Part shown: positions 2,842-20,458 of the stretch, piece after piece
How positions within the stretch are numbered: the stretch's first letter is position 1
Layout of the letters: every line of letters begins with the position of its first letter
Origin: Desulfobacterales bacterium
GTDB taxonomy: Bacteria > Desulfobacterota > Desulfobacteria > Desulfobacterales > Desulfosalsimonadaceae
Reading direction: 5' to 3'
Assembly: GCA_007127175.1 (NCBI GenBank)
Contig: SKZX01000203.1
Span: forward strand, 1 to 27,629
DNA length: 27,629 bases
Position numbers and translations under genes: made by a program
The notes under the pieces: generated by a model
The model's input: the letters and a program-made list of their open reading frames with translations, nothing else
What the model was told of the DNA's origin: nothing
The model's database searches: none

Positions 2842-3030
2842 TTAGGTTTCCTCAACGGTTATCGCACCGGGCTCGCAAACCTCTATGCAGCTATCACATC
2901 CAAGGCATTCATCTGCATTGACCGGAACGGCTTTGCCGTCCTGAAGTTCAAAGACTTCTGTCGGGCACACATCCACACACTCTTCACAACCTTCACACTT
3001 TTCGGCATCTACCGTTGGAATAAAAGCCAT
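2842..3030 (-). CDS. 2[4Fe-4S] ferredoxin, 62 aa
   Basis: Two CxxCxxCxxxC motifs (CEGCEECVDVCP and CLGCDSCIEVCE); acidic; AAGGAG SD upstream. Confidence 0.95.
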   Translation of the reverse strand: MAFIPTVDAEKCEGCEECVDVCPTEVFELQDGKAVPVNADECLGCDSCIEVCEPGAITVEET

Positions 3031-3149: not shown

Positions 3150-3232
3150 GGAAACATATACCACATTTGCTATTTTCCCTTCATGGCCGGAAAATCGAGT
3201 ATCAATTCCTTTGGCTGCCGGTTTTCTGCCGG

Positions 3233-3401
3233 CTAAGTGGTCGAGGGCATAAATACAGTGACGCACCGAGATGGTCGAGGCGCCCGTCCCGCAAGGCGCG
3301 AGAAGCGAGAATAACGGGCGTATTTGAGCGCCGAGCAGCGCCGCCGGGACGGGATGCATCGACCATCGAATGCCGCTGTATTTATGTCCTCGACCACTAA
3401 G
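3233..3401. mobile_element. MITE-like nested-palindrome element (159 bp) flanked by a CTAAG direct repeat
   Basis: 21-bp terminal inverted repeats (3238-3258 and 3376-3396, 20/21 match); inner inverted repeat (3270-3291 and 3345-3367); CTAAG at 3233-3237 and 3397-3401. Confidence 0.65.
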
Positions 3402-4374
3402 CACCGGCCCTGGCGATCAGGCAGAAAAAAGCATGCCTGGACCCGCCCTTTACGGCCTCTTCCCGAAAGGGTGCATCCGTCAATGATTCAATCACTTTGG
3501 CAGGAGAACAATCCGGAATGGCGAACACCTCGAGCATATAGCCGTCATCGGCCAAACGATCAAGATATGAAAACACCCGGGCGGCTTCACCGGTGCCCTG
3601 CCACGGACTGCCGGCAACCGGCGGCAGTCCGGTTGAAAGCGCATCGGCCGCCAAAACCGGTTCGCAGGTCTTGTCCGTCTGCAGCAGGCGGACAAGGGCC
3701 GGCAAGCGTTCGGTCAACGCATCCATGACAGCACGGCTGTCGGTAACAAACAAATCCGGCGGCGACGTATCGTTTCTGGCGAGCAGCGCCCAGGCGGCAA
3801 TGCGCGACTCCGTCATGACGGCGCATGGATCATCGGATGCGGCAGGGTCACCGGAACCAAAGCTTTCCTCAGTATTCAGCCCCTCCCCCCTGAGCTGTTC
3901 AAACAGCTCTTTTGATGCGCTTTCCGCATTTTCAAGGCTCAGCCGGATTTCCCATTCATTGAGGTCGAACTCCTGGGCCAGCTGCAGAAACATCCTTGCA
4001 TTGATCATGGGATCGGCCTTCAGGCCGGCTTCAGGCTCAACGCCGTTTTTCCGTTTCAACACCTCTGTTCTGATCTCAGCGGCGAAGTCCTGGTTGTAAA
4101 ACCCGGAGCCCGCCAACTGGCTGAGCCTGAGGGCGTCTTTCTGGTGAATACGCCCCCAGCGGTCATATGCCCGGCACAATTCCAGAAGATACGTCTCGTT
4201 GCCGATGACCGGGTGCCTGAGCTCAATCGCAGCGGTTTCACCGAGGTGGGCCAGCATGCGGGGTGCCTGATCCATTATCGGCTGATACAGGGCAAAGCGC
4301 CCAAGGCGGCGGTTGACAGCCAATACTGTCCGCTGCGTGACAAATGTGGCCGGGAAAAAAAATTTTTTAATCAT
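3397..4374 (-). CDS. Hypothetical protein, 325 aa
   Basis: Long ORF whose ATG overlaps the TGA of the upstream fusion gene (ATGA, 4371-4374). No recognisable domain. Confidence 0.8.
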   Translation of the reverse strand: MIKKFFFPATFVTQRTVLAVNRRLGRFALYQPIMDQAPRMLAHLGETAAIELRHPVIGNETYLLELCRAYDRWGRIHQKDALRLSQLAGSGFYNQDFAAEIRTEVLKRKNGVEPEAGLKADPMINARMFLQLAQEFDLNEWEIRLSLENAESASKELFEQLRGEGLNTEESFGSGDPAASDDPCAVMTESRIAAWALLARNDTSPPDLFVTDSRAVMDALTERLPALVRLLQTDKTCEPVLAADALSTGLPPVAGSPWQGTGEAARVFSYLDRLADDGYMLEVFAIPDCSPAKVIESLTDAPFREEAVKGGSRHAFFCLIARAGA

Positions 4375-6662
4375 TTGTGGTTACTTACCTTTTCAGTGTC
4401 TTGAACGTTGATACCCATCTTCAGCAGCTGTTCGCGGATGCTGTCCGCCCGCTGAAAATCACGCGCTTTTCTCGCGGCATCGCGTTCTTCAATGAGTTTT
4501 TTCGCTTCCAGGGAATAAGACGCCTGCTGAAAGTCGAATATCGCGAGGACCGAATCGATGCCCAGGATGGTTTTACTTATTTTTTCGGCATCCGCTTTGC
4601 CGATCCGGTTCTCGTCAATCAGGCGGTTGATGCGCTTGATCATATCGAAAAGGGCGGCAATGGCGCGCGGCATGTTCAGGTCGTCATCCATTGCCGACAC
4701 AAAGCCCTGCCTCAGGTCATAGAGCAACTGATCGATTTCCGGGTAGCCCTGGTCCCCCGCGACCTGACCGAGGCTCTTCACAAAAGCGTCAAGCCGTTTA
4801 AGGGTGCTTTTTGACTGCCGAAGCCGATCCACTGAAAAACTGACCGGTTTACGGTAATGGGCCACAACCAGCCAGTAACGGATTTCGCGGGGATCATATC
4901 CTTTTTCCATCAGGGTTTCAAGGGTCGGCAGCGCATTTGCCACCGTTTCTCCTTCTTCTTCCCCCAAAACACGCTCGCAATGAACCCAGCAGCGGGCAAG
5001 GGGCTTGCCGGTAACGGCACGGGCAATGGCGCGCTCGTTTTCATGGTGCGGAAAAACGAGTTCACGGCTGCTGGCATGGATATCAAACGTTTCCCCCAGG
5101 TATTTCATCGCCATTGCAGCACACTGGATATGCCAGGACGGCCGGACATTGCCCCATGGGGTCTTGACGTAAAAGCCCCGTTTCAGCTCGGCAAGGCGTG
5201 CACGCTTCAGCAGGGTAAAATCCCTTGGGTTGTTCTTTTCGTATTCATCCAGGTCCACCGTGGCACCGAGCCTGATTTTATCGAGATCGATGCCGGAGAG
5301 CTGACCGTAATCCTCAAAGGCGCTGATATTGAAATACAGGGATCGCAATTTTTCATAGGCATATCCCTTTTCATAGAGTTTCCGGGCGATGTCCACCATG
5401 TCGTCCACATGTTCGCCGGCACGCGGGTAATGGTCGGCCGGCCGGATATTCAATGCAGCCATATCGGATTTGAAAAAGTCGATGTATTGGTTTGTGAACG
5501 CCTCAAGGGATGTGCCGGCCGCCTCGGATGCCGCTATGGTCTTGTCGTCGATATCGGTGATGTTCATGGCATGGTTCACACGGATGCCCCGGTATTCGAG
5601 GTACCGGCACAGAAGGTCGGAAAAGACGAACCGCCTGCACTCCCCCAGGTTGATGCGCCTGTAGACAGTGGGCCCGCAGGTGTAGACCGTTGCGCTGCCG
5701 TCTCTCAACGGCTCAAAAGGGACCTTTGAGCGGCTCAAGGCGTTGTAAAGGTGTATGTCGGCCTTCTTCTTTTCAGCAAACAGCGTCGTGCTCAAGTATC
5801 TTTCGCCGCTGTCACAAAAGATCACCACGATGGTGCCTTTCTCCATCTTTTCGGCCTCCCTCGCGGCGATCAGCATGGCCGCCCCGCTGCTCATCCCCAC
5901 GAACAGCCCTTCTTCCCGGCTCAGGCGCCGGGTCATCTCAAACGCCTCTTCATCATCGACGTTTATCTTTTCATCCAGGAGGCTTTTGTCATAGAGCTCC
6001 GGCCGGTATGCCTCCTTCATGTTCTTGAGCCCCTGGAGCTTGTGCCCGAGATAGGGCTCCACACCGACGACACGGATTGCCCGGTCATATTCCCGGAACC
6101 GCCGGGAACATCCCATGAGCGTGCCGGTGGTTCCCATGGTGGCCACGAAGGTGTCGATATTGCCGCCAGTCTGCTCGATGATTTCCCTTGCGGTGGTGTT
6201 GTAATGGGCCATCCAGTTTGCGGGGTTGTTGTACTGGTCGGTCATGAAATAGCGGTCAGGAGACTCCCTTACAAGGTTGTAGACCTCCTCGATGGCCCCG
6301 TCGGTCCCCAGATGACCGGGCGTCAGCATGATCTCCGCGCCCCTGGCCGCGAGTATCTTGCGGCGCTCCATGGAAACCGCCTCGGACATGGCCAGAAGCA
6401 GGCGATAGCCCTTTATGCTGCATATCATTGCCAGCCCGATGCCTGTATTCCCGGATGTGGCCTCGATCACGGTTTTTCCCGGGGTCAGCTGCCCGGACTG
6501 CTCGCCGGCTTCGATCATGGCCAATGCCGGGCGGTCTTTTACGGACCCGCCGGGATTGAGATATTCAATCTTGGCGAATATTTTTACGTTCGGGTTCGGG
6601 TTCAGCCGCCTGATTTCCACAAGCGGCGTATTGCCGATGGCGTCCAGTATGGAATGGGTCAT
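4371..6662 (-). CDS. Cysteine synthase (PLP, CysM-like)::cysteinyl-tRNA-synthetase-like fusion, 763 aa
   Basis: N-half (~5775-6662): IGNTPLV, NPGGSVKDR (PLP Lys), EATSGNTGIG, GTTGT. C-half (~4374-5756): CGPTVY, NITDIDDK, WHIQC, FPHHENE, DALR-like helices and an RADSIREQL anticodon domain. The likely start is ATG 6662 (MTHSILDAIG); the ORF-track start at 6734 lies inside the repeat element. Confidence 0.93.
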   Translation of the reverse strand: MTHSILDAIGNTPLVEIRRLNPNPNVKIFAKIEYLNPGGSVKDRPALAMIEAGEQSGQLTPGKTVIEATSGNTGIGLAMICSIKGYRLLLAMSEAVSMERRKILAARGAEIMLTPGHLGTDGAIEEVYNLVRESPDRYFMTDQYNNPANWMAHYNTTAREIIEQTGGNIDTFVATMGTTGTLMGCSRRFREYDRAIRVVGVEPYLGHKLQGLKNMKEAYRPELYDKSLLDEKINVDDEEAFEMTRRLSREEGLFVGMSSGAAMLIAAREAEKMEKGTIVVIFCDSGERYLSTTLFAEKKKADIHLYNALSRSKVPFEPLRDGSATVYTCGPTVYRRINLGECRRFVFSDLLCRYLEYRGIRVNHAMNITDIDDKTIAASEAAGTSLEAFTNQYIDFFKSDMAALNIRPADHYPRAGEHVDDMVDIARKLYEKGYAYEKLRSLYFNISAFEDYGQLSGIDLDKIRLGATVDLDEYEKNNPRDFTLLKRARLAELKRGFYVKTPWGNVRPSWHIQCAAMAMKYLGETFDIHASSRELVFPHHENERAIARAVTGKPLARCWVHCERVLGEEEGETVANALPTLETLMEKGYDPREIRYWLVVAHYRKPVSFSVDRLRQSKSTLKRLDAFVKSLGQVAGDQGYPEIDQLLYDLRQGFVSAMDDDLNMPRAIAALFDMIKRINRLIDENRIGKADAEKISKTILGIDSVLAIFDFQQASYSLEAKKLIEERDAARKARDFQRADSIREQLLKMGINVQDTEKVSNHK

Positions 6663-6694
6663 TGTATGCCCCGCTTTTATGAACGGTAATAGTT

Positions 6695-6818
6695 GACGAC
6701 TTCGAGAAAATCTCAACATCTGCGTTATGCGCAATTCCTCAGAATTTTATGTACGCTAAGTACCCTGCATTCTTCGAAATTGCGCAAGCCTTGATCTTAG
6801 ACTGTTTATAAAGTCGTC
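6695..6818 (-). repeat. ~125-bp palindromic REP/MITE-like element, copy 1
   Basis: GACGACTT...AAGTCGTC termini and internal TGCGCAATT/AATTGCGCA arms. Its reverse complement shares a perfect 34-bp block (6765-6798) with 11042-11075. Confidence 0.85.
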
Positions 6819-6884
6819 TGATCGCGTTTTTTACGGATTCATCCATGGTTAATAAAAAAATATGCAAACCTGCCGGTTTACGCT

Positions 6885-11021: not shown

Positions 11022-11146
11022 GACGGCTGTGAAAAAAAACCAAGATCAAGGCTTGCGCAATTTCGAAGAATGCAGAATACTCAGCTTACGAAAAATTCTG
11101 AGGAAGTTGGACATAACGCAGATATTGGACTTTTTTCACAACCGTC
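11022..11146 (+). repeat. ~125-bp palindromic REP/MITE-like element, copy 2 (inverted relative to copy 1)
   Basis: Terminal stem GACGGCTGTGAAAAAA...TTTTTTCACAACCGTC. Shares 34-, 14- and 12-bp identical blocks with copy 1. Confidence 0.85.
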
Positions 11147-12558: not shown

Positions 12559-13311
12559 ATGATGAAAATAATCGGCATCCGGTTCAAACCGGCCGGAAAA
12601 ATATACCATTTCAATTGCGGCGCTTACGTTTTGAAAGTGGGCGACAAGGTGCTCGTGGAAACCGAGCACGGCCTGGGGTTCGGCATTGTGACAACGCCGC
12701 CCGTTGTCATTGATCCGGACCAGTCCAAGCAGCCCCTGAAGAAGATCTATCGCCCGGCGACGGAAGATGATTTAAAGCAGCTTGAAGCCAATACAACAGC
12801 TGAAAACCAGGCATATCAATTCTGCAGCGAAAGCATAAAGTCCCTTGACCTGGAGATGAACCTGTTTGCGGTGGAAAGCAATTTCGAAGGCAGCAAGCTG
12901 ACCTTTTTTTTCACCGCCGACGGCCGGGTCGATTTCAGGAAACTGGTCAAGCTGCTGGTCAAGCAGTTTCGAAGCAAAATTGAAATGCGGCAGGTGGGCA
13001 TCCGGAACCAGGCCAAGATGTGCGGGGGAATCGGGCGCTGCGGCCGCCAGCTCTGCTGCTCCTGCTTTTTGACCAAATTCGACCCCGTAACGATCAAAAT
13101 GGCAAAAAAACAGGGCTTATCCCTGAACCCCACAAAAATTTCAGGTGTTTGTGGCCGGCTCATGTGCTGCCTGACCTTTGAATATGATTATTACGACAAG
13201 GCCAGCGGCACCCATCCGGGAAAGGCGGCTGCGACGGATGAGAAAGCAATGCCGGGGACAAAAAACCACAGGCCTGCGAATCAAAAACAGAAAACGGAAA
13301 AAACAAAATGA
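12559..13311 (+). CDS. ricT: PSP1-domain protein (RicT/YaaT family)
   Basis: FFFTADGRVDFRKLVK, IEMRQVGIR, GGIGRCGRQLCC, LSLNPTKISGVCGRLMCCL. Sits in the classic holB-yaaT-metG order. Confidence 0.9.
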   Translation: MMKIIGIRFKPAGKIYHFNCGAYVLKVGDKVLVETEHGLGFGIVTTPPVVIDPDQSKQPLKKIYRPATEDDLKQLEANTTAENQAYQFCSESIKSLDLEMNLFAVESNFEGSKLTFFFTADGRVDFRKLVKLLVKQFRSKIEMRQVGIRNQAKMCGGIGRCGRQLCCSCFLTKFDPVTIKMAKKQGLSLNPTKISGVCGRLMCCLTFEYDYYDKASGTHPGKAAATDEKAMPGTKNHRPANQKQKTEKTK

Positions 13312-15230
13312 CCGCTCCTTTTTACATAACAACGCCGATCTATTACGTAAACGCCAAGCCCCACCTTGGGCACACCTATACGACCATCGCAACTGATGTG
13401 GCCCGCCGCTACCATGACATGCTGGGCGCGGAAACCTTCATGCTGACCGGAACGGACGAACACGGCGACAAGATTGTCAAGGCCGCGGAAAAAAACGGGC
13501 AAAGCCCCAGGGAATATGCGGACAGGATCAGCCGCCTGTTTGCAGAACTGTGGCCCGAACTCAACATCCACTGCGATCATTTCATACGGACGACGGATGC
13601 GTCCCATATTGCGGTTGTCATCGATATCCTTCAGAAAATCTACGACAAAGGTGATATTTATTACAGCGAATACGAAGGTTTATACTGTTTCGGGTGCGAA
13701 CGCTTCTTCAACGAACGGGAACTCGTTGACGGCAAATGCCCCGATCACGGCACGCCCCCGGATGTCATCAAGGAATCCAACTATTTTTTCAAAATGAGCC
13801 GCTACCAGCAATGGCTGATCGATTCCCTCACGGACAACCCCGACCTGATACGGCCTGCGCGCTACCGGAACGAGGTGCTGTCATTTCTGAAGGAACCCCT
13901 TGAAGACCTGTGCATTTCAAGGCCCAAAAGCCGTCTTCAATGGGGCATCACCCTTCCTTTTGACGACCGTTATGTCACCTACGTCTGGTTTGACGCCCTC
14001 ATCAACTATGTATCCGCGCTTGGCTACCCGGACGGCGAACATTTCAAGAAATTCTGGCCGCACGTTCATCACGTCGTGGCCAAAGACATCCTCAAGCCGC
14101 ACGGCATCTACTGGCCGACCATGCTGAAGGCCGCCGGCATAGACGCTTACAAGCACCTGATGGTGCACGGCTACTGGAACGTTGAAGATTCAAAAATGTC
14201 TAAAAGCCTGGGCAACGTGGTAGACCCCATCTACCTGAAAGAAACCTATTCCACGGATGCCATACGCTACTTTCTCATGCGCGAAATGGTCTTTGGCCTG
14301 GATTCGAGTTTCTCGGAGACATCCATCATCAACCGGATCAATTCGGACCTGGCCAACGATTTGGGCAACCTGTTTTCCAGGGTCCTGGGAATGTTTCACA
14401 AATACTTCAAATCAACGGTGCCGGAATTCGATCCCGACGCAAAAAGCGATTTCCAGCTGGATTTGAAGTCGGATGCCCAAACAGCCATCTCCGATTTCTG
14501 CAAGGCCATGGACAATTTTGAATTCCACAAGGCGCTGGTGGCTGTCTGGGAGTATATCGGGAAAATGAACAAATACGTTGATGTTACGGCCCCCTGGGAG
14601 CTGGCCAAAAAAAAGGAGGCGAAAAAACAGCTCGACACAGTCATCGGCAACCTTCTGGAAGGCTTGCGGGTGGTATCCGGGCTCATTTACCCCGTAATGC
14701 CTGAAACGGCTGCAACCATGCAGAAACACCTTGGCATGGATGCCGAAAAGCCCTTTTACCGGATCCGGGAAATCCGCGAATGGCCGCAAATACCGCCAAA
14801 CCAGGTTTTGCCCAAGGCGGTGAGCCTGTTTCCCAGGATCGACCCGGAAACCATTCTCGGGCCGGCGGCTTCCGGCGAAACGCATGAACCGGCAGCGCCT
14901 ATCGAACCGGAAATCGGATTTGAAGAATTTTCCAGGATCGATTTGCGGGCCGCAACGGTTTTGAAGGCCGAAAAAATACCAAAGGCCGACAAACTGCTCA
15001 AGCTCGAGATAGACCTCGGGAACCACACCCGGACCATCGTGGCCGGCATTGCCAAGTTCTACACCCCGGATGAGCTCATCGGAAAAAGCATTGTCGTCCT
15101 GGCCAACCTGAAACCGGCAAAGCTCATGGGGGTTGAGTCAAAGGGCATGCTGCTGGCCGCCGTGGAAAAAAACGCCTGTTCCGTTGCCGTGCTGGACCGT
15201 GAAATGCCCGCCGGCGCACGGTTGAAGTAA
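13308..15230 (+). CDS. metG: Methionyl-tRNA synthetase with C-terminal tRNA-binding (Trbp111-like) domain
   Basis: TTPIYYVNAKPHLGH (HIGH), GTDEHG, CFGC...CPDH knuckle, YVWFDAL, KMSKSLGN, C-terminal LANLKPAKLMGVESKGMLL. Confidence 0.97.
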   Translation: MTAPFYITTPIYYVNAKPHLGHTYTTIATDVARRYHDMLGAETFMLTGTDEHGDKIVKAAEKNGQSPREYADRISRLFAELWPELNIHCDHFIRTTDASHIAVVIDILQKIYDKGDIYYSEYEGLYCFGCERFFNERELVDGKCPDHGTPPDVIKESNYFFKMSRYQQWLIDSLTDNPDLIRPARYRNEVLSFLKEPLEDLCISRPKSRLQWGITLPFDDRYVTYVWFDALINYVSALGYPDGEHFKKFWPHVHHVVAKDILKPHGIYWPTMLKAAGIDAYKHLMVHGYWNVEDSKMSKSLGNVVDPIYLKETYSTDAIRYFLMREMVFGLDSSFSETSIINRINSDLANDLGNLFSRVLGMFHKYFKSTVPEFDPDAKSDFQLDLKSDAQTAISDFCKAMDNFEFHKALVAVWEYIGKMNKYVDVTAPWELAKKKEAKKQLDTVIGNLLEGLRVVSGLIYPVMPETAATMQKHLGMDAEKPFYRIREIREWPQIPPNQVLPKAVSLFPRIDPETILGPAASGETHEPAAPIEPEIGFEEFSRIDLRAATVLKAEKIPKADKLLKLEIDLGNHTRTIVAGIAKFYTPDELIGKSIVVLANLKPAKLMGVESKGMLLAAVEKNACSVAVLDREMPAGARLK

Positions 15231-15309: not shown

Positions 15310-16722
15310 ATGTTCAAGCGAAAGAAAAAACCCGGTGGTTATCGGTTTCAAAACATGGCCACGCCTGCTGCAAAATGGCGCGGCTACCAGAACACCATAC
15401 GGATTCATGATGAAAGAAGACAGGCGCTTCGCCGGATGCCCTGGTATTTCGTTGTGCTGCTGGTTTCTGCCGCGCTGATCCAGGGCGGGTTTTATGTACT
15501 CGATCATCGGATGGCCGCCGCACCCAAAGCGCCGGCATCCCTCTACCCGCCTGACGTGGAGCCCCTTGACCGGGAAGGGATTCGCAAAATCCTCACACCA
15601 GACCGTTTTCTCAACATGGCTGAAAAAAATATTGAAATCCGGACCGGTGGAACCCATTACCAGATTTACACGAGCATCGACCCGGACCTCCAGAATGCCA
15701 TTATCCGGTCTCTTGACACCCGGCATGCCAACAGGATCGGCATTGTCGCCATCGAGGCGGATACCGGCCGGGTTCTGGCACTGGTTTCGCACAACGATGA
15801 CGACCCGGATCAGAACGCCTGCCTGGCGGCCGATCTTCCCGCCGCAAGCTTATTCAAGATTGTCACGGCCGCAGCAGCCATGGAAGCCGGCGGGTTTGAG
15901 CACCAGAGCCGGATGGCCTTCAACGGGGGAAAATTTACCTTGTACAGGCGGCAGCTGACTGACCAGGAAAACCGGTACACCAATTATTCGAACCTGAAAG
16001 CCGCCTTTGCCGAATCGATCAACCCGGTTTTTGGAAAGCTCGGGAAAAACGAACTGGGCAAAGATATCCTCACCGACTATGGCCTGGCGTATTATTTCAA
16101 CCAGGGTATTGATTTTGACCTGCCCGTGGACCAAAGCACCTTGAAAATATCCGATACACCTTACAATTGGGCGGAAATCGCCTCCGGCTTCAACCGGACC
16201 ACAACCATATCGCCCCTGCATGCCGCCCTGATCGCCGCCTCCGTTGTAAACGGCGGGCGCATCATGGAGCCGTCCATTGTCGATGTGGCGGCCAGGGAAA
16301 ACCGGACGGTTTACCGGCGGCGGCCTGCAATGGCAGCACGCACGGTTGAACCCGGAACACTGGAAGGCCTGGACACGCTCATGAATGCCACCATCACCCG
16401 GGGCACCGCAAGAAGTCTGTTTGCAGGGTCTTCAAGGGACCCGGTCCTGTCGAAGCTCCGCATGGGCGGAAAGACAGGCGCACTCAACAACAATGCCAGA
16501 CAGATCCGTTATGACTGGTTTACCGGGTATGCCCTGGACCCTGAAGGCTCGGGAAAAATCGCCATCGGTGTCATCGTTGCCCACAAGGAATACATCGGTA
16601 AACGGGCTGCCACATATTTCAGGCAGGCGGTGGCCGCCTATTTCAGAGACCGGCTTTCGCAAACGGAAAACATGCAAAGGACAGACAATATTGCCGGTGA
16701 AAACAATAAAAAACCTGCATGA
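15310..16722 (+). CDS. Membrane-anchored penicillin-binding protein (transpeptidase domain), 470 aa
   Basis: N-terminal TM helix; SLFK (SxxK), SIN (SxN) and KTG motifs, in order. Confidence 0.88.
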   Translation: MFKRKKKPGGYRFQNMATPAAKWRGYQNTIRIHDERRQALRRMPWYFVVLLVSAALIQGGFYVLDHRMAAAPKAPASLYPPDVEPLDREGIRKILTPDRFLNMAEKNIEIRTGGTHYQIYTSIDPDLQNAIIRSLDTRHANRIGIVAIEADTGRVLALVSHNDDDPDQNACLAADLPAASLFKIVTAAAAMEAGGFEHQSRMAFNGGKFTLYRRQLTDQENRYTNYSNLKAAFAESINPVFGKLGKNELGKDILTDYGLAYYFNQGIDFDLPVDQSTLKISDTPYNWAEIASGFNRTTTISPLHAALIAASVVNGGRIMEPSIVDVAARENRTVYRRRPAMAARTVEPGTLEGLDTLMNATITRGTARSLFAGSSRDPVLSKLRMGGKTGALNNNARQIRYDWFTGYALDPEGSGKIAIGVIVAHKEYIGKRAATYFRQAVAAYFRDRLSQTENMQRTDNIAGENNKKPA

Positions 16723-16726
16723 GCAG

Positions 16727-19700
16727 ATGCGCGCCGTAGCGACAACAATTATTCGCGTTGCAAGGAAGCTGAACCAAACCGTTTTTTTCGGGCGCAGTCT
16801 CCAGACTATACCGGAAAACGCCCTTGTATTGTTTCCTTTCCACACCAACCGTCTTTCCTGCGGTTTCACAGGGCTAATCGCATTCAACACAGCCGGAAAA
16901 CCGGCTCCATCGGTCAACCCAGCGGATTTTCACGCCCGCCTCGACCGATCCGCTGAAAATGGTTTTACAGCTTGCAGCAACCTTTCTGCGGATGATTTCA
17001 TCGCCGCCTATCTTTGTGGCGACGATCATGTGTCCAACCTACAGGAATCCATACAAAAACTGAAACAAAACCATTTTTTCCACCGTATCTACAACGGCGC
17101 GGACCTTTTTGAGGCGTTGTCCGGCTTCACCGCACGGCTCGAAACCGTGTTGCAGGCTGAATCCGGACATCTGGCCACCCAGATGGGCGTCCTTCCCTCA
17201 CAGCAATTTGACGCCATGTCCACGCGCATCGAAAAACTCAAAGATGCCCAATGGTGCCTGAAAACGGAAATACTCGACAATGTCCTGCGGGTCAGGGCCC
17301 TTGCCGGCGACGAATCAAACCGCATGAACGCCACAGGCGTTTCCGCCGCAAGACAGATCAATGCCGTATTGAACAGCATTGACCGCCTGGAAGTCCGCGG
17401 CCGGGATTCAGCCGGCATTTCCCTGATGTTTGTTGTTGATGACAGCCATTACAAGATTTTTTTGGATGAAATCGCCGCAGCAGGCCTCTCGGGGGAATTT
17501 ACCAAACGCACGAACCAGGGTGTTTTAACCAACAAGGGAATTTCCACGAACAGGGAAAACGGCCGCACCGCCATTGCCATGACCTACAAGGTGGCGGCAG
17601 AAATCGGCTCCCTGGGCGACAATGTTCGTTTCATAAGGGATCAGATTCGGCAGGACCCCCTCTTCACCGCCCTTATTACACTGCCCCGGGTTTATTTCAC
17701 GGTCTCGGCCCATACCCGCTGGGCCTCGGTCGGCGCGATCACCGAGGCCAACTGCCATCCCGTTGACAACCGGATCATGACCCCGGTTGCCGGGCGGCCT
17801 GGCATCATCCATGTCTGCTTAAACGGCGATATCGACAACTACCAGGCATTGAAGGCGGACCATGAAAAAAGGGGGCTGCGCTTTTTCGAGGATATCACCT
17901 GCGACACCAAGATCATCCCCGTGCACATCGAGCACTACTACAGGCAGGGACATGTCGTGGAAGAAGCGTTCCGCCTCGCGGTCAATGATTTTGAAGGCGC
18001 CCATGCCATTGCCATGCACACCGACCTAGCCCCGGGGAAATTTTTCCTGGCTCTCAGGGGAAGCGGCCAGGCCATATTCATCGGCCTTGCCCCGGACCAC
18101 TACATCCCCACCTCCGAAGTGTACGGCTTTGTCGAAGAAACAACACGCTTTCTGAAAATGGACGGGGAGGCCGTCAGCCCGTCTGCCCATGGAAAAGGCA
18201 TTACCGGACAGATATTTGTCATCGACCAGGCCGGTAAAGGCGGTCTGGACGGGATCAATGCCATGTTTTACTGCGGTTCCCCCATACCGCTGAGCGACGG
18301 AGACATTCGCACAACCCAGCTGGTTTCCAGGGACATCGACCGCCAGGACTTCAACCACTATTTTCTGAAGGAAATTTCAGAAGCACCGGCATCGGTTCGA
18401 AAAACCATGGCCAACCGCTGGAAGATCTCACAGAACGAAGACGGCCGCTACTATGAAGTCCACCTGGATGATTCATGCATGCCCGTATCCGTCAGGTCGG
18501 CGCTCCTGGAAAACAAAATCCGTCGGATCGCCTTTATCGGGCAGGGAACCGCAGGGGTGGCCGCCCTGGTCTGCGCCAACCAGCTGCGCCATTACCTGGG
18601 AGACGGCGACATCCGGATTGAAGCCATGAAGTCATCGGAGCTCAGCGGGTTCATGATGGATGACAGCCGAACCGCCGGCATGGAGGGCACTCTCCTGATA
18701 CCCATCAGCCAGTCCGGCACCACCACCGATACCAACCGAACCGTGGACATGGTTGCAAAGAAAGGCGGCAGCATCATCTGCATTGTCAACCGGCGCGACT
18801 CGGATTTGACGTTCAAAAGCCACGGGGTGATTTACACGAGCTCGGGCAGGGACATCGAAATGTCGGTGGCCTCCACCAAGGCATTCTATTCCCAGATCAT
18901 CGCCGGCGCCCTGCTCGGGCTGCACATAGCCGGGTTGACAGGCAAGCGGGGTCGCCATTTTATCTCAAACGAGATCAAAGAAATGATCGGGATACCCGGT
19001 ATGATGGAAACCGTGCTTTCCACGACCGATGCGATCCGGGCATCCGCCAACAGGCTGGCATTGCAGCGGACTTACTGGGCGGTGGTGGGAAGCGGGCCCA
19101 ACAAGGCGGCCGCCGACGAAATCCGGATCAAACTGAGCGAATTGTGCTACAAAACCATATCCTCGGATTTCGTGGAGGACAAGAAGCACATCGATCTTTC
19201 CAGCGAGCCGTTGATCATTGTCTGTGCGGCGGGCACAAGGCGGCGCGTGCTGGGGGACATCGTCAAGGACACGGCGATTTTCAAGTCCCACAAGGCCCTT
19301 CCCGTGGTCATCTGCGATATGCACGAGGACCGGTTTGACCCCTATGCCGAAGATGTCTTCCGCGTCCCTCAGGTCAGCGAGCACTTTGCGCCCATATTGA
19401 ACACGCTGGTCGGGCACATCTGGGGCTACTACGCAGCACTGGCCATCAATGAAGGGTCCCGGTTCCTCTATGATTTCCGGGAGGATATCCAGTCCATGAT
19501 CCGGGCTTACACCGCCGAAAACCTCGACATATTCGAAATCGCCCTCGAGGAAACCTTCCGGGAAAAAATCCTGCGATTTTACCGGGATTTTCGAAAAAAG
19601 CAGCAGGAAAACCACCTGCCCGCCACCATGGGGCTCAAAGAAGCGACCAACCTGACACTGCTGCTCAAGTATCTCGCCGGCCGCCTGCCGATCAATGATT

Positions 19701-20458
19701 TTGAGTTTGATTTCGGCGTCAAGGGGACGGCCAAGAACATGTTCGCCCTGTTTTTTGATGCACTGGGGGAAGCCATCAACGTCATGGCCCGCCCGGTGGA
19801 CGCCATCAAGCACCAGGCGAAAACCGTGACGGTGGGCACTAGCCGGATCGAAGAAAGGGCCGAGGGGCTCCTGTTCGATATCCTGGCGGAAAAAGGCTTC
19901 GGCGTCGAGCATCTCACGATTATAAACGTGATGGTTTTGCGCAATATCCAGAAAATCCTATCCGGCATCAAGGGACTCACCCTTTACCGGGTATCGGGCG
20001 TGAACCTCCTGGGGGAGCCCACCGACCAAACCACCATCTCCGTTATTGAGAAAAAGGGTACGTCCGCATCCATCGCCTCGCGCAGCGAAACCGATCAAAG
20101 CCTCAAGGGCTCCAAGCGGATAATCGTCCGCCAGGGCAATATCTACCTTGGAAAGGGGCGCAAGGATGGCCGGTCCGTCCTGATCATACCCGTCATCTCG
20201 GGTGACCCGGCGCAGCCCAACATGATCGAGTACCTGCTTTTGCTTGAAGTCGCCTTTAAAACCGACGTGGACCTGTCAACCCGTGTCAAGGCATTGGGCG
20301 GCAAGCACGAGCACATCAAGAACATCGTCCAGGAAAATTCCGTCCCATGGAAGGACGAATACCTGGACATGGTCCCCATGGATGAACTCTTTGGCCTTTC
20401 GGCGGAAAAAGTCGCAGAAATGATCGTTGAAAAAACGGGAAAAAAGGAATGGCCCTAA
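16727..20458 (+). CDS. glmS: Giant glutamine--fructose-6-phosphate aminotransferase-like protein (~1243 aa)
   Basis: CGFTG, LEVRGRDSAG, HTRWA, NCHP, LNGDIDNY, YFLKEISEAP, ISQSGTTTDT, SVASTKAF, KLSELCY, HQAKTVTV. The first plausible start is ATG 16727, 4 nt after the PBP stop; 16385 overlaps the PBP gene. Confidence 0.88.
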   Translation: MRAVATTIIRVARKLNQTVFFGRSLQTIPENALVLFPFHTNRLSCGFTGLIAFNTAGKPAPSVNPADFHARLDRSAENGFTACSNLSADDFIAAYLCGDDHVSNLQESIQKLKQNHFFHRIYNGADLFEALSGFTARLETVLQAESGHLATQMGVLPSQQFDAMSTRIEKLKDAQWCLKTEILDNVLRVRALAGDESNRMNATGVSAARQINAVLNSIDRLEVRGRDSAGISLMFVVDDSHYKIFLDEIAAAGLSGEFTKRTNQGVLTNKGISTNRENGRTAIAMTYKVAAEIGSLGDNVRFIRDQIRQDPLFTALITLPRVYFTVSAHTRWASVGAITEANCHPVDNRIMTPVAGRPGIIHVCLNGDIDNYQALKADHEKRGLRFFEDITCDTKIIPVHIEHYYRQGHVVEEAFRLAVNDFEGAHAIAMHTDLAPGKFFLALRGSGQAIFIGLAPDHYIPTSEVYGFVEETTRFLKMDGEAVSPSAHGKGITGQIFVIDQAGKGGLDGINAMFYCGSPIPLSDGDIRTTQLVSRDIDRQDFNHYFLKEISEAPASVRKTMANRWKISQNEDGRYYEVHLDDSCMPVSVRSALLENKIRRIAFIGQGTAGVAALVCANQLRHYLGDGDIRIEAMKSSELSGFMMDDSRTAGMEGTLLIPISQSGTTTDTNRTVDMVAKKGGSIICIVNRRDSDLTFKSHGVIYTSSGRDIEMSVASTKAFYSQIIAGALLGLHIAGLTGKRGRHFISNEIKEMIGIPGMMETVLSTTDAIRASANRLALQRTYWAVVGSGPNKAAADEIRIKLSELCYKTISSDFVEDKKHIDLSSEPLIIVCAAGTRRRVLGDIVKDTAIFKSHKALPVVICDMHEDRFDPYAEDVFRVPQVSEHFAPILNTLVGHIWGYYAALAINEGSRFLYDFREDIQSMIRAYTAENLDIFEIALEETFREKILRFYRDFRKKQQENHLPATMGLKEATNLTLLLKYLAGRLPINDFEFDFGVKGTAKNMFALFFDALGEAINVMARPVDAIKHQAKTVTVGTSRIEERAEGLLFDILAEKGFGVEHLTIINVMVLRNIQKILSGIKGLTLYRVSGVNLLGEPTDQTTISVIEKKGTSASIASRSETDQSLKGSKRIIVRQGNIYLGKGRKDGRSVLIIPVISGDPAQPNMIEYLLLLEVAFKTDVDLSTRVKALGGKHEHIKNIVQENSVPWKDEYLDMVPMDELFGLSAEKVAEMIVEKTGKKEWP

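Follow-up and report, generated by a model that had tools for sequence, protein, structure and literature searches.

Why would a bacterium fuse an enzyme that makes cysteine to a cysteinyl-tRNA synthetase (CysRS) that appears unable to charge tRNA with it? The question is raised by a gene on contig SKZX01000203.1 of a Desulfobacterales bacterium (GenBank assembly GCA_007127175.1), positions 1 to 27,629 of which constitute the window analyzed here. The product of this gene consists of a CysK/CysM-like cysteine synthase, which is an enzyme dependent on pyridoxal 5'-phosphate (PLP), followed by a CysRS-like domain. A first-pass annotation described the latter as a pseudo-synthetase that cannot activate cysteine with ATP but still binds cysteine and/or tRNA-Cys. 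The loss of sequence motifs, the presence of a second cysS gene in the genome, and the signature of purifying selection all support this description. Among the roles that were put forward at that time, a sensor is the one that we favor, although tentatively, whereas a tRNA scaffold for the PLP enzyme is weakened by the need for free cysteine in lineages where the fusion is the only gene of the CysK/CysM family.

The open frame occupies 4371..6734 on the reverse strand and amounts to 787 codons when counted from a TTG at 6734. The real start is likely the ATG at 6660-6662 (M25), because an equivalent methionine opens homologs of 753-783 amino acids (aa). Residue numbers given below refer to the 787-aa frame (P0001), and the coordinates of all features are collected in Table 1. 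Pfam models match PALP at residues 29-308 (250 bits), tRNA-synt_1e at 340-642 (270 bits), DALR_2 at 678-732, and CysS_C at 742-782. The protein also exceeds the curated NCBIfam cut-offs for both cysS (TIGR00435, 381 versus 340 bits) and cysKM (TIGR01136, 365.7 versus 344 bits), and the first of these scores explains why it is named a cysteine--tRNA ligase in databases. The nearest solved structure for the PLP half is CysM of E. coli/Salmonella (2bhs, 257 bits), and M. tuberculosis CysM (3DKI) scores 226 bits. Neither the PLP lysine nor the carboxylate-binding Asn loop (TSGNTG) nor the phosphate loop varies in either of our alignments (A1 and A2). Thus, judged by its motifs, the fusion joins an intact cysteine-making enzyme to a full-length CysRS-like body that lacks the ATP site. 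An AlphaFold2 (AF2) model has a mean predicted local distance difference test score (pLDDT) of 87.6 with both domains confidently folded, whereas its predicted template modeling score (pTM) of 0.59 leaves the relative orientation of the domains undefined. With this score and a disordered linker, no channel or interface between the domains can be claimed from the model.

Table 1. Positions of the fusion gene, its domains and motifs, and two adjacent genes in the 27,629-nucleotide window.
Feature	Position	Strand	Remarks
Fusion gene, CysM-like cysteine synthase + CysRS-like pseudo-synthetase	4371..6662	-	763 aa; stop 4371-4373
PLP domain, CysK/CysM family	5778..6662	-	TIGR01136 365.7 bits; catalytic signatures intact
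SVKDR (PLP Lys)	6531-6545	-	PLP domain
TSGNTG (Asn loop)	6441-6458	-	PLP domain
GTTGT (Gly-rich phosphate loop)	6120-6134	-	PLP domain
Interdomain linker, ~11 residues	5763..5795	-	AF2 pLDDT <50, residues 290-300 in 763-aa numbering
CysRS-like Rossmann/connective-peptide (CP) domain, degenerate ATP site	4809..5753	-	Pfam tRNA-synt_1e; alignments to 8qhp, 3tqo, 1li5
HIGH equivalent, N362-L-G-E365	5640..5651	-	Alignments to solved CysRS
HGGG..D equivalent, H553-A-S-S-R-E558	5061..5078	-	Alignments to solved CysRS
KMSKS-equivalent loop, WVHCERVLGEEEGETVANALPTL	4920..4988	-	Acidic stretch (GEEEGETVAN), no KMSKS; alignment
Zn/cysteine pocket span	5034..5678	-	C353 (5676-5678), T393, W534/C538, H563/E567; alignments to solved CysRS
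CGPT	5667-5678	-	Kept
TDIDDK (T393)	5541-5558	-	Kept
WHIQC (W534/C538)	5121-5135	-	Kept
PHHENE (H563/E567)	5034-5051	-	Kept
Helical (DALR_2) + C-terminal anticodon-binding domain	4374..4703	-	Pfam DALR_2, CysS_C
G34 contact set R751, R755, F760, D764, R767	4434-4484	-	C-terminal helix RDAARKARDFQRADSIR
Partner gene, 325 aa, fold without known match	3397..4374	-	Start overlaps fusion stop (ATGA)
2x[4Fe-4S] ferredoxin, 62 aa	2842..3030	-	Downstream of partner gene; syntenic

Is the ATP site truly lost? The first-pass annotation had read NLGE in place of HIGH and HASS..E in place of HGGG..D, with KMSKS gone, and alignments to three solved CysRS structures (8qhp, 3tqo, and 1li5) bear out all of these readings at the positions given in Table 1. 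The metG product encoded in the same window (13308-15230) does keep HLGH and KMSKS, as also noted at that time. The loss cannot be attributed to chance because it recurs in all 120 full-length database homologs and in 42 genomic copies from across the phylum, which answers the earlier question of whether homologs share it. When these 42 fusions are compared with 31 canonical CysRSs, the second His of HIGH persists in 10% of the former and at least 95% of the latter, and its replacements include E, N, Q, L, V, P, and M. The first His survives in 59% of the fusions. The middle glycines of HGGG (G237 and G238 in the numbering of the canonical CysRS of this genome) are kept in 0-7%, and the second Lys of KMSKS in 2%. 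Erosion of the ATP site is graded across the family. The KMSKS loop is fully erased in the order-level clade to which the window belongs, and several other orders carry a KMSRS or KMS(R/Q)(S/A) relic (for example, L024, L087, L089, L091, and L036).

The fusion is widespread and is clearly being maintained. More than 120 full-length examples were recovered from a protein collection, many of them named 'cysteine--tRNA ligase' or 'cysteine synthase', and homologs occur in metagenome-assembled genomes of Desulfobacterales, Desulfosalsimonas, and Thermodesulfobacteriota. Among 401 sampled genomes of the phylum, 158 carry a full-length fusion, representing 98 of 255 genera, and the distribution is mostly all-or-none by family. 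When the CysRS-like domains of 41 fusions are placed with 31 canonical CysRSs in a maximum-likelihood tree, rooted at the midpoint only, a single branch with a length of 1.16 and a support of 100/100 separates the two groups. Pairwise ratios of nonsynonymous to synonymous substitution (dN/dS) range from 0.03 to 0.17 for the CysRS-like half and from 0.03 to 0.15 for the PLP half. These values indicate strongly purifying selection, and thus the relaxed selection that the first-pass annotation had named as a sign of decay is not seen. There are 132 columns that are at least 95% conserved in canonical CysRS, of which 59 keep their residue in at least 90% of the 42 fusions. In addition, some residues have become newly fixed family-wide, namely R180 to T (100%), I87 to T (95%), T128 to S (93%), and S312 to K (90%).

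If the fusion does not charge tRNA-Cys, another enzyme must do so. The genome, which is represented by 2.5 Mb in 434 contigs and is 84% complete, indeed carries the second, intact cysS that had been proposed as a check. This gene (C423:1861-3309) adjoins ispF, scores 589 bits, and encodes CHIGHARS, HGGGKD, and KMSKS. The fusion is therefore a paralog and not the cysteine-charging enzyme of the cell. A classical cysE-cysK pair resides on contig C407, and thus each half of the fusion is matched by a stand-alone gene. The same arrangement for cysS holds in relatives. A survey of the sampled genomes with the cysS model (E <= 1e-80) yielded two matches in most fusion genomes, including all twelve that are closed, and mostly one match in fusion-free genomes. 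Closer inspection of five exceptions revealed a separate canonical cysS in each. Families f50 and f85 and part of f99 yielded a single match with an E value in the canonical range (about 1e-154 to 1e-181), where the domain of the fusion itself presumably falls below the threshold. A canonical cysS was found in addition to the fusion in every fusion genome examined.

The only tRNA-Cys found in the genome is ordinary, with a GCA anticodon, U73, and a G1:C72 pair, and on this ground a dedicated unusual tRNA-Cys was rejected. The window itself includes no tRNA gene and no Rfam match. The genome also encodes selenocysteine machinery (tRNA-Sec). ARAGORN reports a 99-nucleotide tRNA-Ser(tga) elsewhere in this genome (G000:C128:2883-2981), but the predicted RNA has many stem mismatches and folds poorly, and it is probably a false positive rather than an allo-tRNA.

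Two observations on gene integrity in relatives were made along the way. In the closed genome that includes locus L084 (G016:C1:2735500-2741500), the fusion frame breaks near position 3030 of the locus and its C-terminal third continues in another frame, which is either a frameshift or a sequencing error. This copy has NLAH at the HIGH position and RKMAAEAGN at the KMSKS position, and so is nearer to canonical CysRS. In a different genome, the canonical cysS is split into two overlapping frames (L077/L083, G041:C2:129281-130649), apparently by a frameshift, and the same genome carries the most divergent, pocket-less type of fusion.

What has the domain kept? Residues C353, C538, H563, E567, W534, and T393 correspond to C28, C209, H234, E238, W205, and T68 of the E. 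coli enzyme, and all are present. Retention of the zinc and thiol ligands (CGPT, WHIQC, and PHHENE), of DIDDK, and of the C-terminal anticodon-binding helix had been claimed on first reading, and each of these elements is confirmed. Of the 42 fusions, at least 90% retain the equivalents of C28, C209, and H234, and only 63% retain the fourth zinc ligand, Glu238. Three sampled fusions, which fall at two separate points of the tree, have lost zinc-site residues. In a high-GC divergent clade (L081 and L082), neither Cys ligand remains, whereas L088 has a displaced first Cys and no H234 but retains the C209 position. The genome that carries L088 (G112) is closed, and the fusion is its sole cysteine synthase.

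The anticodon-reading residues show a different pattern. Residues R751, R755, F760, D764, and R767 align with E. coli R423, R427, W432, D436, and R439, which are reported to contact G34 of tRNA-Cys (PMC12684709). The G34-contact residues of CysRS have also been targeted in other work (PMC13449415). These five positions are R, R (K in two cases), F/W/Y, D, and R in 157 of 157 fusions, and canonical CysRS has the same pattern. Anticodon reading therefore appears, from these alignments, to be the most constant property of the dead domain. The CP-domain motifs WGNVRPS and DFTLLKR are likewise kept in fusions. Because the pocket has been lost in L081, L082, and L088, the description 'tRNA binder' is better supported than 'cysteine binder'.

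The cysteine synthase half is found in a telling genomic context. Ten closed fusion genomes from nine families were examined, and in seven of them (G112, G030, G104, G039, G016, G106, and G383) the fusion is the only gene of the CysK/CysM/CBS family. No cysE match was found in those seven genomes, although the fusion frame of G016 is itself interrupted. The other three (G264, G017, and G394) have an extra cysK together with cysE. Among five closed genomes that lack the fusion, all have a stand-alone cysK or cysM and four have cysE. More broadly, across families f1-f30, cysE was not matched in 22 of 56 genomes from fusion-bearing families versus 13 of 73 genomes from fusion-free families. By this measure of gene content, the fusion takes the place of the CysE/CysK pathway in a sizable minority of lineages and coexists with it elsewhere, including in the genome studied here. 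Where the fusion is the sole CysK/CysM-family gene, its PLP half must make free cysteine because the canonical CysRS of the same cells requires it. Judging from gene complements, the PLP domain in these lineages must also work without O-acetylserine from a classical CysE.

The anatomy of the fusion, its conservation pattern, its paralogy to CysRS, and its genomic context are established by these results. The interpretation that we rank first, although at slightly less than even odds, is that the fusion carries a non-charging module that senses tRNA-Cys or cysteine on behalf of the cysteine synthase. In this model, the C-terminal two thirds of the protein would be a catalytically dead CysRS paralog that forms neither cysteinyl-adenylate nor charged tRNA. 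This domain would dock tRNA-Cys through its anticodon-binding domain, and its zinc pocket, which is retained in the lineage of the window, would accommodate either cysteine or the cysteinyl terminus of Cys-tRNA-Cys. A short linker would connect it to a working CysM-type synthase that makes free cysteine. The presence of uncharged or charged tRNA-Cys and/or cysteine on the dead synthetase might then alter the activity of the PLP domain, in one direction or the other, and so tie cysteine synthesis to demand. Lineages that lack CysE, at which cysteine feedback usually acts, would need a control point of this kind. A narrower version of this model is possible but more doubtful. The module might sense the charging state of a single tRNA, such that tRNA-Cys, either uncharged or carrying cysteine, is held by its anticodon while its 3' end tests the zinc pocket, and the synthase is switched on or off in place of CysE feedback. 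If this is the case, bacteria would have an equivalent of GCN2 or of the T-box that acts at the protein level.

Several findings weigh against the sensor model. The pocket is dispensable in L081, L082, and L088, and with Glu238 kept in only 63% of fusions, a pure cysteine sensor fails as an explanation for the whole family. The low pTM of the predicted structure leaves the facing of the two domains undefined, and thus the model offers no communication path or structural argument for coupling. The genome under study has a cysE-cysK operon, and therefore the argument for replaced CysE feedback is not directly applicable to it. Finally, the several orders that have HxGx and a KMSRS-like loop may retain weak ATP chemistry.

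This last point bears on a reading in which the domain remains a ligase of sorts. It might activate cysteine in a non-canonical manner, possibly assisted by the product of the adjacent partner gene, and transfer it to tRNA or to another acceptor in a manner similar to that of MshC in mycothiol synthesis. Active class I enzymes with a variant HIGH motif do exist, such as TrpRS with TIGN, and the core of the partner protein has weak but repeated structural matches (Z 3.3-4.2) to the nucleotidyltransferases NadD, PanC, and ATP sulfurylase. However, all three elements of the ATP site are absent together in this protein, and the free variation of the second His replacement (E/N/Q/L/V/P/M) points to no constraint. 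The partner scores are below the noise of the tool and the partner has no HxGH, and the pattern in MshC is the opposite one, since that enzyme is tRNA-free and has kept its ATP motifs. We thus consider residual ligase activity improbable. Somewhat more attractive, although still unlikely, is the possibility that the dead CysRS serves as a scaffold that holds tRNA-Cys while the PLP domain acts on an amino acid esterified to A76, by the logic of SepCysS and SelA. The reaction could generate Cys-tRNA-Cys in a tRNA-dependent manner, or it could modify Cys-tRNA-Cys by persulfidation or a different beta-replacement. The invariant G34 contacts, the conserved CP motifs, and the short linker would be compatible with this arrangement, and the zinc pocket would suit cysteinyl-A76. 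However, neither SepRS nor another known pre-charging enzyme was found. For SepRS, there is no match to TIGR00470 above noise in this genome (G000) or in five closed relatives, and on this basis tRNA-dependent cysteine synthesis through SepRS was rejected. Moreover, a canonical CysRS that requires free cysteine is present, and the fusion is the sole CysK/CysM-family gene in seven closed genomes. The Asn loop that binds the free carboxylate of the substrate is also invariant, whereas an ester substrate would have no need of this loop.

Alternatively, the pocket might simply catch newly made cysteine while the domain tethers tRNA-Cys, so that free cysteine, which is toxic, is kept low or is delivered locally to translation with no allostery. 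The attraction of this idea is that a cysteine source and a highly specific cysteine pocket are on one chain, in cells that live in sulfide and could over-produce cysteine. It is nevertheless improbable, since one site per enzyme cannot buffer a metabolite pool, the fusion and the canonical CysRS would be rivals for a single anticodon surface and could not share one tRNA, and the pocket is gone in L081, L082, and L088. Even less probable is a trans-acting deacylase that proofreads tRNA-Cys by clearing a wrong amino acid such as selenocysteine. Elements for binding tRNA and its aminoacyl end are kept without a synthetic site, and the genome does have tRNA-Sec, but CysRS lacks an editing site, and there are no obvious hydrolytic residues. 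Nor would this role account for the obligatory fusion with a cysteine synthase or for the existence of pocket-less lineages. That the domain is a functionless remnant of a formerly bifunctional enzyme is scarcely credible. Its catalytic motifs are certainly eroded, and further in this order than elsewhere, but decay is contradicted by the dN/dS values (0.03-0.17), by full-length copies in 158 genomes of 98 genera, by the invariant G34 contacts, and by the fixation of new residues.

The gene neighborhood offers a further candidate participant. The gene order is tmk, the fusion, a gene for a 325-aa protein, and a gene for a 62-aa ferredoxin, followed further on by genes for MGMT and RNase J, and Desulfosalsimonas propionicica has the same order. 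The gene for the 325-aa protein, here called the partner, is located directly downstream of the fusion in ten fetched loci, all from the order-level clade of the window. A profile search likewise matched the partner only within this clade, which is the one in which the KMSKS loop is fully erased, and so its candidacy as a universal companion of the fusion was rejected. In family f40 (L028:3798-4433, L036:821-1783, and L039:830-1495), the fusion is overlapped or followed at its end by a gene for a DUF3786 protein, which is unrelated to the partner when compared with hhalign. The partner protein has no Pfam match, no Foldseek match in the PDB at E <= 0.001, and no HxGH motif, and its matches in the AlphaFold Database are restricted to uncharacterized clusters. 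Its AF2 model (pLDDT 79, pTM 0.78) has a best VIA-align Z of 4.6. The matches of its core to HUP-type proteins (NadD, NadR, PanC, ATP sulfurylase, and PAPS reductase) have Z values of 3.3-4.2, which is below the noise level of the tool. Copies of the ferredoxin at the same position are 77-87% identical in L009, L015, L018, L020, and L025, and 56% identical in L017.

Contigs from a soda-lake metatranscriptome cover 3374-6787 with zero or one mismatch, and one of these spans the junction between partner and fusion. The adjacent MGMT gene, which is covered at normal depth when DNA from this sample is sequenced, has zero depth in the RNA library. These data are consistent with transcription of the fusion and its partner in situ, although contigs are weak evidence and the library may include some DNA.

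Short intergenic repeats flank the pair of genes, at 6695-6830 and 3230-3400 of the window. BLAST searches across the contigs of this genome gave 25 matches for the upstream repeat and 13 for the downstream repeat, with each count including the copy itself, and one inverted copy is located at 11042-11123. Sequencing depth spikes at both repeats, with maxima of approximately 590x for DNA and 1200x for RNA, compared to approximately 8-14x nearby. Elsewhere in the window, a 1357-aa open reading frame of unusual length (16385-20458, forward strand) is present where a GlmS-like gene is expected.

How does the fusion compare with systems that are already known? It shares with canonical CysS (EC 6.1.1.16; TIGR00435; 1LI5/1U0B, with 8QHP as the closest solved structure) its fold, domain order, zinc and cysteine ligands, and G34 contacts. 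It differs in its degenerate HIGH, HGGG, and KMSKS motifs, its N-terminal cysteine synthase, its placement in a separate clade, and its occurrence beside a true cysS. The N-terminal domain is a close relative of CysM and the O-phosphoserine sulfhydrylases (2BHS and 3DKI) and has all the motifs of the PLP site. Its candidate substrates are O-acetylserine, O-phosphoserine, and serine. As with M. tuberculosis CysM, the fusion often occurs without CysE, but unlike CysM it is joined to a pseudo-synthetase.

Known CysRS paralogs are MshC and the selC*-linked CysRS* (PMC9437257, PMC5389517). The fusion cannot be identified with MshC, since it scores 191 bits with TIGR03447 against a cut-off of 485, has lost its ATP motifs, and has an anticodon domain. 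MshC for its part keeps its ATP motifs and belongs to actinobacterial mycothiol synthesis. It works without tRNA (PMC2922099). The CysRS* of some Desulfobacterales lacks an anticodon-binding domain, is encoded downstream of selC*/selB*, and has been proposed to charge an opal-suppressor tRNA-Cys (Mukai et al., PMC5389517). Although CysRS* and the fusion are both second CysRS paralogs in the same bacterial group, they are not identical, because the fusion has an anticodon domain, has tmk and an uncharacterized gene as neighbors with no tRNA gene in the window, and has lost its ATP motifs. Full-text literature searches found no paper on a CysK/CysM-CysRS fusion. The new elements here are the context of a sole cysteine synthase, the graded erosion of motifs, and a dispensable pocket set against invariant anticodon readers.

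These findings matter for annotation, because family members are named 'cysteine--tRNA ligase' and their genomes therefore seem to carry two CysRSs, while metabolic reconstructions overlook the fusion as what is often the sole cysteine synthase. For physiology, they suggest that many sulfate reducers, as well as relatives of these bacteria, obtain cysteine by a pathway that is independent of CysE and in which an unusual element may exert control. If the proposed role is true, a dead CysRS that keeps its anticodon readout and is fused to the enzyme for its own amino acid would represent a new instance in which an aminoacyl-tRNA synthetase (aaRS) domain has been reused as a sensor of tRNA or amino acid.

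Precedents exist for parts of this logic. HisZ is an aaRS paralog that does not carry out aminoacylation and is physically associated with an enzyme for biosynthesis of its cognate amino acid (PMC9437257, Table 1). As with HisZ, which is the regulatory subunit of the short-form ATP phosphoribosyltransferase HisG, the fusion has a predicted non-catalytic aaRS paralog joined to the cognate biosynthetic enzyme, with the pocket kept in most members. HisZ is a separate subunit in which the anticodon-binding domain is missing, and tRNA is not a known ligand of it. The module of the fusion is instead present in cis, and anticodon contacts are its best-conserved feature. In GCN2, a dead HisRS-like domain is fused to an effector enzyme and senses uncharged tRNA, which makes it the closest match to the logic proposed for the fusion. 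However, GCN2 is a eukaryotic eIF2-alpha kinase that binds many tRNAs, whereas the fusion is a bacterial metabolic enzyme that is predicted to be specific for tRNA-Cys.

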